DNA of 64,000 nucleotides, taken from Candidatus Thorarchaeota archaeon. Lineage in GTDB: Archaea; Asgardarchaeota; Thorarchaeia; Thorarchaeales; Thorarchaeaceae. Position numbers and translations under genes: made by a program. Below are positions 40,154 through 45,273 of the stretch, in pieces. The stretch is from positions 64,001 to 128,000 of the forward strand of contig JBHLQH010000001.1 of assembly GCA_048884965.1 (NCBI GenBank), written 5' to 3'. Each line of letters starts with the position of its first letter. The stretch's first letter is position 1. The notes below the pieces were generated by a model. It saw only the letters and a program-made list of their open reading frames with translations. It searched no databases and was not told the origin of the DNA.

Positions 40154-43100
40154 CTAGAGAGGGATGTCTATCCCTGCATTCTTCAACATTGCCACTGCAA
40201 AGTTCTTGACGCTCTCAAGAGGATCATCAAAGTTGAAATCAAATGCCAGATTGTATGTTTGCCCAATAAACACGATATCCGCATCGAGAGATAGGATTCG
40301 ACTATTCACATCACTGAAGTCAGCTGCAAAGCTTGCTTCTGTGATATTGAATACTCCTCCCAAACCCCAGTCGACAACGAACTGTGTTAGTGACGAGAAT
40401 CCTGAAATCACCTCTCTAGCTATGACCACAGCTCCTTCAGCTATTTTCAATGCAGCCCATGCAGCGACTCTTGCTGTCACAAGTGCGATAACACGTGGGT
40501 CTAGAGCTGGATTTGCTATTACAACTACCGCCTCTGCGATTTTCAGTGCTGTCTTTGCAATTTCAAGAACTGCCCAGGCTGCAGCACGCGCAATTTGTAA
40601 TGCTCCAATCGTCACATAGTGAGCAGTTATCTCAGCAGAACGCCAACCAACTTCATAGACCAGTCTGGTCCATTTCCACGTCTTCTCCCACCAAGGTGCA
40701 GAATTATACCATTTGTTCCACCATGCTATTTCAGAGTTGAGCGTGTTTATCCTAGATTGAATAGATCGTATCTGTGAATCGATCTTGTTTACTTCATTTT
40801 GGGCAGCCGTTACTGCATTTTGGGCGTCCTTCAAGCCAGCGACTATTGCGTCCTGTTCCTTCTGCACGATTGCTATCATGTTGGATATCTGGATGTCCCA
40901 GCTTTCCACATCATGTTGTGCTGCGACTAATGCGTTCTGGGCGTCATTTAGTCCAGATACAGCTGCGTCTGTTATATCTTTGATAAAATTCAGGATATTT
41001 TCACGCACATAGTCCAGCAGATCATTCTTCATGTAGGCTCTCAAATAGACCCCGTCTCCTGAGCCTTTGAGAAGCTCGTCCAGACTAGGACCAGATACTT
41101 CTAGAGAGGCCTCAAACAAATCAAAGATTTTTGCCATTGTCAACAGGTAGAATCCATCTTCATCGATGTTGATATCCACCAAACCTTTCATTAGTCCTCC
41201 GAGGATGCTTATCGCTCCGGATACGACAAGCTGAAGATTGCTTGATGACCGTCGTAGATCAAGGTCAAACATTGCGCCTTTCTTTGTGTCACTCGCGTGA
41301 GTCAGCTTGATCAATTCAAACCCATTAATTGAGATGTCAATTGGATCTATTGCAGCTCTGATGTAAATTCCATCATCAGGATCCAATAGCGCTTCTGCAA
41401 AGATATTGAAATCGAAGATATCCAGTAGAGCTCTCATATGAAATCCTGCATTGTAGTTTACTCCTCCAACTATAGTATCCATTAGAGCATAGTGGAACTT
41501 TACATCACGCATTTCTATTCCGTCCAAGAATGCGAAGAACTGTTCAGGAATAATATCTGCAACAACGAAGAGGAGTGACCTGACAACTGTGCCAATATTC
41601 AGCTGATTGAACTCAATACTTAGCAACTGAAGTGTTGGTCCCTTCAGACTGATAGCTCCACTTCCAGTGAAGGAGCCAATAGTCACATCTGCCATGACAC
41701 CAAACTCTGGCATGAAGGGCACGCTAACACCTATGTCCACTCCTAATCTGTTCACGGTTATTCCTTTAACACCCATAGGATCTTTCCATTCACCAGTCGT
41801 GTACGCTGATAGCTTTAGCGAAGGATCTGGATCGACCTCTAGGATGAAAGCACCCTTCAGAGGGAGATATTCTTCACCAATCCGCAAATCCATGTCCGAT
41901 TCCAATCGAATACCAAAACCTTCAGATGCATATCTGATTCCGAAGAGGAATCCTTTGAGTATGATGACATCCTCTAGGTTGATATTCAACTTAGAACTTG
42001 CTAGGAATTCAAGCGAGAACGGACTTGTCGCTATAATTCCTGCGACACTCAGAGAATCCACATTCAATAGTTTCGTAACGAGGTCATCTTGGAAAGTCGC
42101 TTGGAAGTTGATTCCTTTCTTGATCTCTCCAGCTACTTTCACTTTTCTGAGTAGATCCATTGGCACCTTTAAATCTGCATTCGACAGAACTAATGCTTCA
42201 TTGGTCAACGAATCCGAAACTGGATTAGGAATCGCAGGTACTTTCAGCAAACTGAGAGCCTTTTTGATTCCCATAGGTGTCGCCATAAGAGGTGCCCACT
42301 TTCCTGTTTCAGGATCTTTGTGAATTACGAATTCAATCACGGTTGCTTCGGTCGTAATCGTTGCTGAGAATAAAGGAATGCCAGGAGCGATTCTTAATTC
42401 GACATTTGTTATCTTCAATGCTCCAATCTCTGACAGACCCGGAGGTACTGGAAGGCTGAGAGCTTGAAGGCAATCTTCTGCAAAAGTCCCTAGATTAACT
42501 GATATTGGGGCACTGGCCGTCAACTCAAAATCACCGGGGAATTTACATCCGATGATTAAGGGTAGGTTTCCTACATTGAAAGTTCCGTGCATGTCAACTG
42601 AGAAGACTCTTACGTTTTCATCACTCAGTTTTTGAGTGATATTGATTTTAACATCGCTGATTGAGAAATTGAATGTGGGTATGGCAAAACCACTATCCGA
42701 TTCAATGTCAATGGCAAATTCTTTGGTCCTGAGATTATATGAAAGGGACAAATCGACTTCAAGATCTGATGGCGGAGAAAAGTTACTTGAGAGGTCTTGG
42801 AGAGATGCTATTCCAAGGTCGCTCACGATTGATTGGAAATCCAAAGTGGTCTTCGCTTCGAGTATTTGATCAGTATCTTTAGGAGCGATCGAGTAATCAA
42901 TCACTGTTGAGCCTACTTTTATTTTCCCATCAAGCATAATTACTGTTTGAGGACTTGGGACAGTGGTTGTTTTGGGATCACGCTTAATCGTAATCTCTGG
43001 AGTTAGGAATATGTTTGTATTCTCCACAATCTCCCAGTCACCATCAGTAGTTGCTTTCAATGTGTACGACCCTGTACTAGGCACATATTCCAAGTTTATG

Positions 43101-44550: not shown

Positions 44551-45273
44551 CTACTTACCCCCTTTCTTCATCGGACTCTTGTCTGTTCGGCTTTGTTGCT
44601 TCTTCTTTCGTTCTGCTTTTACCTTTGAAATGGTTTTTTCCATCTCGCCCCTACTGTCATCATATTCCTTGTCTATCCTCTTCCTTTCCTTAAGGAAACT
44701 AATCATTCTAGGGTCTTTCTCGATTGGCATATCACGGAAACCTGATCTAATTGACTCTCTCTCAATTCTAAGCTGTTCCAAGCGTCCTCGCTGAGAAAGT
44801 TCCTGCTGTATCAAACTCGGAATTTCTTGTTCAAGCAATCCAATATCTTTGGTAATCTGTTGAACTTTTTCTTCAAACTTCTTCCTTGCAGACTCCAATT
44901 TAGCAGCATCTAGTTCTACAGGATTCTCGAGGTCGACATCCTTGTGAAGCGAGTGACGGAATTCTTCTTCCGCTCTTGCAATCTCTGCTCTGCGAATCTT
45001 ACTCCGCAGTTTAAAATCATCTAATTTCTGTTTAGATGCTTTCCAGTCCCTCTCAGCATTGTGAATTTCTCTTTCCACTCTCGGTAATGCTCGTCTGGGA
45101 CCTTTTCTTTCACGCCTTAGACTTTCTTCAACATCGACCGATAAAATATCAAATCGCTTCTTTCTTTCTTTTGCATGGGCGAACGTCTCTCTGACTTTGA
45201 TATACCTCTCATCAGATTGTATATACTTGGGAATTTCAAAGTCGTCTGGTTCCCCCGTTTTACCACGACTCAT
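44551..45273 (-). CDS. 240-aa charged coiled-coil protein homologous to the C-terminal hairpin of the downstream 1460-aa protein
   Basis: Very K/R/E-rich; PIEKDPRMI motif; ends 14 bp before the 1460-aa gene start. Confidence 0.8.
   Translation of the reverse strand: MSRGKTGEPDDFEIPKYIQSDERYIKVRETFAHAKERKKRFDILSVDVEESLRRERKGPRRALPRVEREIHNAERDWKASKQKLDDFKLRSKIRRAEIARAEEEFRHSLHKDVDLENPVELDAAKLESARKKFEEKVQQITKDIGLLEQEIPSLIQQELSQRGRLEQLRIERESIRSGFRDMPIEKDPRMISFLKERKRIDKEYDDSRGEMEKTISKVKAERKKKQQSRTDKSPMKKGGK

Follow-up and report, generated by a model that had tools for sequence, protein, structure and literature searches.

A Thorarchaeotal gene pair encoding a large hairpin protein and a charged paralog of its hairpin: candidate for a membrane-acting module shared with bacteria

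We analysed a 64,000-nucleotide stretch of the genome of a Candidatus Thorarchaeota archaeon (hereafter the window; assembly GCA_048884965.1, contig JBHLQH010000001.1, positions 64,001 to 128,000), in which two adjacent genes on the reverse strand code for a small, highly charged protein (P0002) and for a large protein with a long helical hairpin near its C-terminus (P0001). Profile comparisons identify P0002 as a diverged paralog of the tip-proximal part of that hairpin, and the two genes are neighbours in other archaea and in bacteria as well. We tentatively propose that Thorarchaeota have in this pair their version of a mobile module, widespread but undescribed, with a membrane-acting, toxin-like role, in which the small paralog would cap the hairpin of the large protein; this is the reading that we prefer, and we hold it just short of probable.

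Paralogy between the small protein and the hairpin of the large one

A first-pass annotation of the window had aligned P0002 by hand, without gaps, to both arms of the P0001 hairpin (residues 41-99 of the small protein with 1213-1271 of the large one, and 151-197 with 1310-1356; 9 identities in each segment). Judged pairwise, that alignment is at chance level: its BLOSUM62 score of 19 for arm 1 was reached by 13% of shuffled small proteins somewhere on the hairpin, and its score of 4 for arm 2 by 99.8% of shuffles. BLASTP of the small against the large protein returned no match, and hhalign with a large-protein profile built from Thorarchaeotal sequences only gave a probability of 0.07%. The same comparison became significant with wider families. 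Five bacterial partners of large proteins (see below) matched an 88-sequence profile of large-protein C-terminal regions with a probability of 99.6% (E 1.7e-23, 171 gapless columns); the Thorarchaeotal small family matched these partners at 98% (E 2.6e-13, 165 columns) and the large-protein profile directly at 70.5% (E 3.9e-5, 162 columns). As controls, alignment columns were reversed or shuffled in blocks of seven, so that composition and heptad periodicity were preserved; the best control scores were 37.6, 26.7 and 25.3 for the three comparisons, against real scores of 166, 89 and 43.9, respectively.

Both the transitive and the direct profile alignments place residue 41 of the small protein on residue 1213 of the large one, and residue 151 on residue 1310. 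They thus land in the very register that had been proposed by hand, which confirms the observation and the paralogy drawn from it, although its pairwise statistics did not support it. Because the comparisons restricted to Thorarchaeota fail, bacterial intermediates were needed to expose the link; a hand alignment devoid of pairwise significance can still be right. The similarity extends to motifs that do not follow the heptad pattern, namely EIxxWxxWY, WR[SG]xxI and PI[DE]xDPR: a bacterial partner reads EIDEWKRWYSS...EINWRSQSI...NPIESDPRL where large proteins read EIAWWNKWYNS...EVGWRSAEI...PIDADPR. By these profile alignments, the small protein derives from a duplication of the part of the large-protein hairpin next to the tip, including both arms, the tip and a clasp made of the ER..P and PI[DE]xDPR motifs, and it has become highly charged since the duplication.

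The contrast in composition noted in the first-pass annotation is borne out, with 47% Lys, Arg, Asp and Glu residues and a single Trp in P0002, as opposed to a hairpin that is 53% hydrophobic and carries 8 Trp at its tip in P0001. Hydrophobic residues make up 26-33% of the small-protein arms, as against 50-70% of the second arm in the large hairpin (approximately 70% in the Thorarchaeotal return arm); the latter share is more than a two-helix coil would be expected to need. The description of the hairpin as hydrophobic and rich in Trp holds for Thorarchaeota but not as a general trait, since the hydrophobic, Trp-packed arm and tip are an extreme of that lineage: the tip Trp count is 8 there as against a mean of 2.4 elsewhere in the family, and bacterial relatives have Ala/Gly-rich arms and Lys/Trp/Tyr-rich tips. 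The basic and aromatic character of the tip is family-wide (for example KKKWYDKSPWYKKSYRW).

The invariant residues of the Thorarchaeotal small proteins include the ERKGPRP (arm 1) and PIEKDPRM (arm 2) motifs, with E55 and P59 invariant in arm 1. They correspond to the ER.. and PI[DE]xDPR motifs that are repeated with each 39-residue unit of the large hairpin. Relatives differ in how many copies of this unit they have, each protein containing between 0 and 3 DPR motifs, and partner length stays at approximately 170-240 residues whatever the number of repeats in the large hairpin, indicating that the partner matches only its tip-proximal part. The Thorarchaeotal small proteins also have a variable, Lys/Arg-rich C-terminal tail, such as KKKQQSRTDKSPMKKGGK (window 44551-44610 (-)), which is probably disordered and is missing from the bacterial partners.

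The gene pair is conserved across two domains of life

A profile of the C-terminal half of the large protein was searched against representative clusters at 50% identity. This yielded 2443 representative clusters at E <=0.001, of which 397 at E <=1e-30. Loci with large-protein relatives were found in Cyanobacteria, Bacteroidota, Thiotrichaceae, Desulfobulbaceae (Electrothrix) and Actinomycetota. In the bacterial loci, a gene for a partner of 170-220 residues lies upstream of the large gene on the same strand, and the small-then-large order recurs in Thorarchaeota, another Asgard lineage, Cyanobacteria, Bacteroidota and Desulfobulbaceae; in one locus (L003) the order is reversed. The adjacency was seen in Thorarchaeotal contigs, in one other Asgard genome (G258), in 11 bacterial loci and in three more found through look-ups of the small partner. 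Two Asgard lineages and no fewer than three bacterial phyla thus keep the genes adjacent, and the gene pairing that the first-pass annotation had proposed to look for in other genomes exists in both prokaryotic domains. Culturable carriers include Calothrix anomala FACHB-343 and Algoriphagus sp. SE2; WP_190550077 and WP_190550075 are a Calothrix pair. Among 104 relatives, we found no natural fusion with two full hairpins in one chain.

The family is a rare one in Asgard archaea, with about 4 carriers among 301 sampled genomes and none among five other genomes of the same genus. In a FastTree phylogeny the Asgard sequences cluster together and the bacterial clades mix phyla; branches are long and the root is a midpoint only, so that the tree carries no claim on the direction of transfer. 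The patchy Asgard distribution and the phylum-mixed bacterial tree show that the gene module is horizontally mobile. In an Acidimicrobiaceae metagenome-assembled genome (L019:9008-12329), the large gene is split into two overlapping frames of 793 and 368 residues, both of which match the hairpin profile; this may reflect a frameshift or an assembly error.

The large protein combines an amphipathic beta sheet with a long hairpin

We generated two AlphaFold models of P0001, for residues 730-1460 (model 1, pLDDT 83.1) and 400-1000 (model 2, pLDDT 86.6, pTM 0.72). After the N-terminal region come beta modules, each with three strands, two short helices and three strands, which in the models run into a meander of approximately 25 long antiparallel strands. 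The strands are amphipathic, the mean Kyte-Doolittle value being +2.2 for one face and -0.9 for the opposite face. The hairpin is predicted to be approximately 160 Å long. By DSSP analysis of model 1, its first arm is one helix of approximately 108 residues and its second arm is interrupted at NPALDPR, with pLDDT below 50 at the PALDPR kink. The N-terminal MxLxxLxxxI pattern is found in 41 of 102 representatives devoid of a signal peptide. The N-terminus of the Thorarchaeotal protein (MSLEILETQIRENINT) has no hydrophobic core and therefore does not qualify as a signal peptide.

Four Thorarchaeotal relatives (P0007, P0009, P0011 and P0012) are approximately 1000 residues long and lack about residues 95-570 of P0001. 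They are short of about four beta modules, so the number of modules varies within the lineage, and they retain the N-terminus, the barrel-like region and the hairpin. The contigs of P0007 and P0012 have the same lengths as those that carry the small partners P0025 and P0027, respectively.

Library and fold searches return no named family

The large family has no significant Pfam, NCBIfam, PADLOC, PHROG or PDB match beyond coiled-coil noise. Its members are named 'hypothetical' or bear automatic coiled-coil labels in the source databases, and we found no description of the family in the literature searched; the earlier remark that no named system has this layout thus agrees with both types of searches. 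In Pfam and NCBIfam, neither P0001 nor P0002 matched anything above curated cut-offs, YaxAB/XaxAB-type toxins included, and none of the Pfam domains of Tc toxin TcA proteins (VRP1, TcA_TcB_BD and others) was matched. A PDB sequence-profile search gave NheL1 and MakE at E 0.02-0.03 only, which is the coiled-coil level. PHROG yielded no match for P0001 or P0002; the matches of a bacterial relative all lie in the coiled-coil region, the best being to a tape-measure family (E 2.7e-9).

Fold searches were similarly unspecific. No ClyA-family chain appeared in the top 50 for the large protein, an absence that excludes nothing, and the hairpin retrieved generic helical hairpins only. Foldseek gave Deinococcus SlpA at E 2.3e-3 and the Yersinia entomophaga holotoxin at E 0.13 (probability 0.15), and VIA gave Veillonella OmpM1 at Z 8.7 and porins at Z 9-11, with approximately 220 residues aligned at a root-mean-square deviation of 8-10 Å, a range that is common for unrelated models. 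An Atlas feature search retrieved unnamed clusters only, and the BFVD structure search had no match at E <=0.001.

Bacterial loci carry enzyme cassettes, lectin fusions and signal peptides

In several bacterial loci, a gene for an enzyme, which differs from locus to locus, is inserted between the partner and large genes or lies beside the pair. By Pfam, these cassettes include NleD-like Peptidase_M91, EEP-family and metallo-beta-lactamase-fold proteins (Table 1). No obvious immunity gene was found beside the five enzyme genes listed there. The intervening genes of two other loci (L021 and L037) were considered as metallo-beta-lactamases on account of short motifs (VGQGS, HHGSDH) and were rejected, as Pfam gives no support. 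Myristoylation of the M91 cassette proteins was likewise discarded, since they start with MGN and the remainder misfits the consensus.

Among giant relatives there are fusions with Laminin_G_3, Tectonin, Tachylectin, H-lectin and beta-trefoil domains, and signal-peptide-like N-termini are present in 27 of 129 full-length-looking representatives. No secretion-system genes were found in the loci examined. Genes for a PemK toxin (L004:1747-2058), a YoeB toxin (L038:13592-13831) and a TIR-domain protein (L037:8235-9842) are located near bacterial modules, which may therefore lie in conflict-gene neighbourhoods.

A tentative capping model and its alternatives

In the mechanism that we favour, the small hairpin would pack alongside the large one in a pseudo-symmetric four-helix bundle, with the acidic tip of the partner covering the basic, aromatic tip of the large protein. 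As long as this cap is in place, the large protein would be kept in a soluble, inactive form inside the producing cell. Once the cap is lost, it might dock on a membrane by means of its Lys/Trp/Tyr tip, and its large amphipathic beta sheet could insert into the bilayer, form a pore in it or capture its lipids. The bacterial versions of this chassis might serve as an extracellular toxin or a delivery platform with swappable enzyme genes, a view that draws on those genes, on the lectin domains and on the Sec signal peptides. As the Thorarchaeotal operon consists of the two core genes only, whatever activity it has would have to come from the large protein.

Two features are consistent with a role of the small protein as a cap, chaperone or decoy, namely its length, which does not follow the repeat number of the large hairpin, and the opposite charges of the tips. 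Across 16 gene pairs, which are related so that their count overstates independence, net charge averages -1.5 for the partner tips, all of them acidic or neutral, and +3.4 for the large tips, which are positive without exception. With less confidence than for the capping model, we consider it possible that the two proteins represent a previously unrecognised two-component membrane-acting machine, in which a 'ruler' hairpin of variable length, with an aromatic tip that docks on membranes, would be gated by a charge-inverted mini-hairpin and which bacteria would have adapted as a toxin or for effector delivery, with exchangeable enzymes and lectins.

Several observations weigh against capping and membrane action, beyond the relatedness of the pairs compared. 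The large protein has no transmembrane-grade segment (maximum KD19 1.65), the Thorarchaeotal proteins have neither a signal peptide nor an evident export route, and the beta fold is without a significant solved relative in the fold searches. Enzyme cassettes are present in a minority of loci and absent from the Thorarchaeotal operon. Finally, the forms with a signal peptide seem to lack a partner, as judged from one examined locus.

The best alternative is that the small hairpin is a stoichiometric subunit, which would co-assemble with several large hairpins into a multi-helix stalk or channel made of paralogs, in the manner of bipartite alpha-pore-forming toxins, rather than a removable cap. 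Homology over both arms and the tip, the close spacing of the two genes (14 nucleotides, with the ribosome-binding site of the large gene overlapping the stop codon of the small one) and the retention of the W..WY...WR tip residues in bacterial partners would fit such an assembly. We nevertheless find it unlikely, given that partner length is independent of the number of hairpin repeats, that the tips of the partners are acidic and contain little Trp, contrary to what a tip facing the membrane would show, and that a partner seems to be missing where family members have a signal peptide or a lectin fusion.

An intracellular defence system against viruses or mobile elements, with the large protein as a sensor or scaffold, the variable enzyme as the effector and the small paralog as a regulator, appears distinctly unlikely. 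It would account for the patchy distribution and horizontal movement, the swappable nuclease- and protease-type cassettes, the toxin-antitoxin and TIR genes near some loci, and the absence of signal peptides from the Thorarchaeotal protein and many bacterial forms. However, the PADLOC matches, to JetC, LmuB and similar proteins, are weak (E 6e-5 to 8e-3) and confined to the coiled-coil region; library scans found no nucleoside triphosphatase or nucleic-acid-binding domain; and about a fifth of representatives have signal-peptide-like N-termini, with lectin domains in giant relatives.

A housekeeping function in the envelope or in lipid transport, in which an AsmA/TamB-like or apolipoprotein-like beta-sheet carrier would be served by the small protein as an assembly factor, is improbable. 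The strands are amphipathic, filamentous or gliding bacteria often carry the family, and there is some likeness in shape to TamB and YhdP clusters (TM 0.25-0.35 in an Atlas shape search) and to ApoB100 (Foldseek E 4.9e-4, TMq 0.10). These similarities are nonetheless below any confident threshold, AsmA/TamB/YhdP models of Pfam and NCBIfam do not match P0001 or six bacterial relatives, searches did not recover the family from most of the Asgard genomes, among them the five sampled from the same genus, and enzyme cassettes and lectin fusions are at odds with a housekeeping role.

That the resemblance between the two proteins is a coiled-coil coincidence and their adjacency meaningless, as the pairwise statistics and the Thorarchaeotal-only profile comparison would have it, is scarcely credible in view of wider-profile E-values of 1.7e-23 and 2.6e-13 far above the reversed and heptad-block controls, of the shared non-heptad motifs and of adjacency across two domains of life.

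Operon layout and neighbouring genes

Both open reading frames, the 14-nucleotide spacer and the GGAGGTG site described in the first-pass annotation were recovered from the window sequence, the junction being TAG-GAGGTGGGAATAAT-ATG, with no gene in between. The small and the large gene are each present in one copy in the genome. An AT-rich stretch of approximately 270 nucleotides upstream of the small gene, with an AAGGAG site 8 nucleotides 5' of its ATG, is a putative promoter region, and the inverted repeat GAGCTGGA-n6-TCCAGCTC past the large gene resembles a terminator. On sequence grounds, the junction and the upstream and downstream signals fit a two-gene operon.

Table 1. Coordinates of the gene pair, its parts and the flanking signals in the window, and of enzyme cassettes in bacterial loci
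Feature	Position	Strand	Basis
AT-rich region upstream of the small gene, with TATA-like runs and AAGGAG site	45274..45540	(-)	
Small gene P0002, 240 aa; charged helical protein, diverged but paralogous to the tip-proximal part of the large hairpin	44551..45273	(-)	
Small-protein arm 1, aa 41-99, containing the conserved ERKGPRP break	44977..45153	(-)	profile-derived register to large-protein aa 1213-1271
Small-protein arm 2, aa 151-197, containing the invariant PIEKDPRM (aa 183-190, nt 44704-44727)	44683..44823	(-)	
Spacer of 14 nt; GGAGGTG ribosome-binding site overlapping the TAG stop of the small gene	44537..44550	(-)	
Large gene P0001, 1460 aa, without signal peptide	40154..44536	(-)	
N-terminal region, aa 1-185, opening with the MxLxxLxxxI pattern	43982..44536	(-)	sequence
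Approximately 5 beta modules of ~115 aa each, aa 187-755	42272..43978	(-)	sequence, model 2 (aa 400-1000)
Long-strand antiparallel beta meander with porin-like curvature, aa 756-1169	41030..42271	(-)	models; VIA Z 9-11 to porins
Helical hairpin, aa 1171-1390	40367..41026	(-)	model 1 DSSP; 39-aa internal repeat
Trp-rich tip, aa 1271-1309, 8 Trp in 39 residues	40610..40726	(-)	
PALDPR kink, aa 1343-1348, Thorarchaeotal form of the family motif PI[DE]xDPR common to the small protein	40493..40510	(-)	
C-terminal three strands and helix, aa 1391-1460, plus stop codon	40154..40366	(-)	model 1
Inverted repeat, 38 nt past the stop of the large gene	40095..40116	(-)	
NleD-like Peptidase_M91 cassettes	L013:6020-7267, L016:2979-4220		
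EEP-family enzyme cassette	L006:4258-5565		
Metallo-beta-lactamase-fold cassettes	L020:5850-6842, L003:8638-9996		Pfam

Upstream of the operon and on the same strand, there is a gene for a 232-residue protein without a match in Pfam (P0215, 46022-46720 (-)); as it is not conserved at the corresponding place in another Thorarchaeotal locus (L001), it was not counted in the module. Directly downstream of the large gene and on the opposite strand are genes for a thiolase-fold protein and a DUF35/ChsH2-type OB-fold protein (38137-40079 (+)). This pair recurs approximately 3 kb from the module in another Thorarchaeotal contig (L001:17582-19224), which suggests partial synteny. Further away, a 165-residue protein (36253-36750 (+)) matches the PCI domain at a borderline level (E 4e-4) and has a zinc ribbon at its C-terminus, and a tetratricopeptide repeat protein is encoded beside it.

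Significance

A family of about 2400 clusters thus has neither a name nor a family assignment in the libraries searched. If the capping model were true, it would represent an unusual control of a membrane-active protein by a charge-inverted copy of its own targeting hairpin, as well as a new chassis for toxins or delivery, to which enzymes and lectins are added in modular fashion. For studies of Asgard archaea, the case calls for caution, as a protein that looks suited to membrane remodelling is here a patchy accessory gene outside the conserved core inventory. The mechanistic ideas are plausible and have some indirect support, and the module appears to be a good candidate for experimental study, its Calothrix or Algoriphagus versions being the most practical.

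Comparison with known systems

Outer-membrane barrels may resemble the large protein in part: like SlpA, OmpM1 and porins, it is predicted to combine a big antiparallel meander, the curvature of which looks barrel-like, with a long coiled coil. The C-terminal end of outer-membrane proteins is of the strand type, and no outer membrane would be expected in an archaeal host. In contrast with such barrels, the Thorarchaeotal protein has no signal peptide, its C-terminus is helical and the hairpin is inserted near the C-terminus.

Likeness to AsmA-like/RBG proteins (TamB, YhdP, VPS13) and ApoB100 lies in hundreds of residues of meander with one hydrophobic face, TamB, YhdP and ApoB100 being the only named, and weak, shape matches among amphipathic beta-sheet lipid binders. 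However, the large protein has no N-terminal anchor, and its repeat unit comprises six strands and two helices, whereas the RBG unit has five strands. In VIA, porin barrels (Z 10-11) rank above the AsmA-like lipid binders.

YaxAB and XaxAB, of the ClyA superfamily, are encoded by adjacent genes as paralogous helical proteins, one partner being more hydrophobic at the membrane end. The parallel drawn with them in the first-pass annotation stands as an analogy, in that adjacent paralogous helical partners are proposed to hetero-assemble through long coiled coils, but we found no sequence or fold link. The Thorarchaeotal pair differs by its very unequal sizes (240 and 1460 residues), by the duplication of the hairpin only and by the mostly beta-sheet nature of the large protein.

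In LXG-Lap complexes of type VII secretion systems and in the chaperones of type III secretion translocators, small helical proteins are encoded beside a large secreted or membrane-active protein. By analogy only, a small helical partner is proposed here to bundle with a helical domain. We detected no homology to these systems, and the partner described here is a paralog of the domain that it would bind.

Lastly, two reports describe the umbrella toxins of Streptomyces as particles in which lectins and polymorphic enzymatic toxin domains are combined with a long stalk formed by an antiparallel coiled coil (PMC11062931, PMC13274773). The families are unrelated. In umbrella toxins the toxin domain is part of the stalk protein, and neither a giant beta sheet nor a paralogous cap is known from them. 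What they appear to share with the bacterial modules is the combination of a long coiled-coil stalk with lectins and enzymatic toxins.

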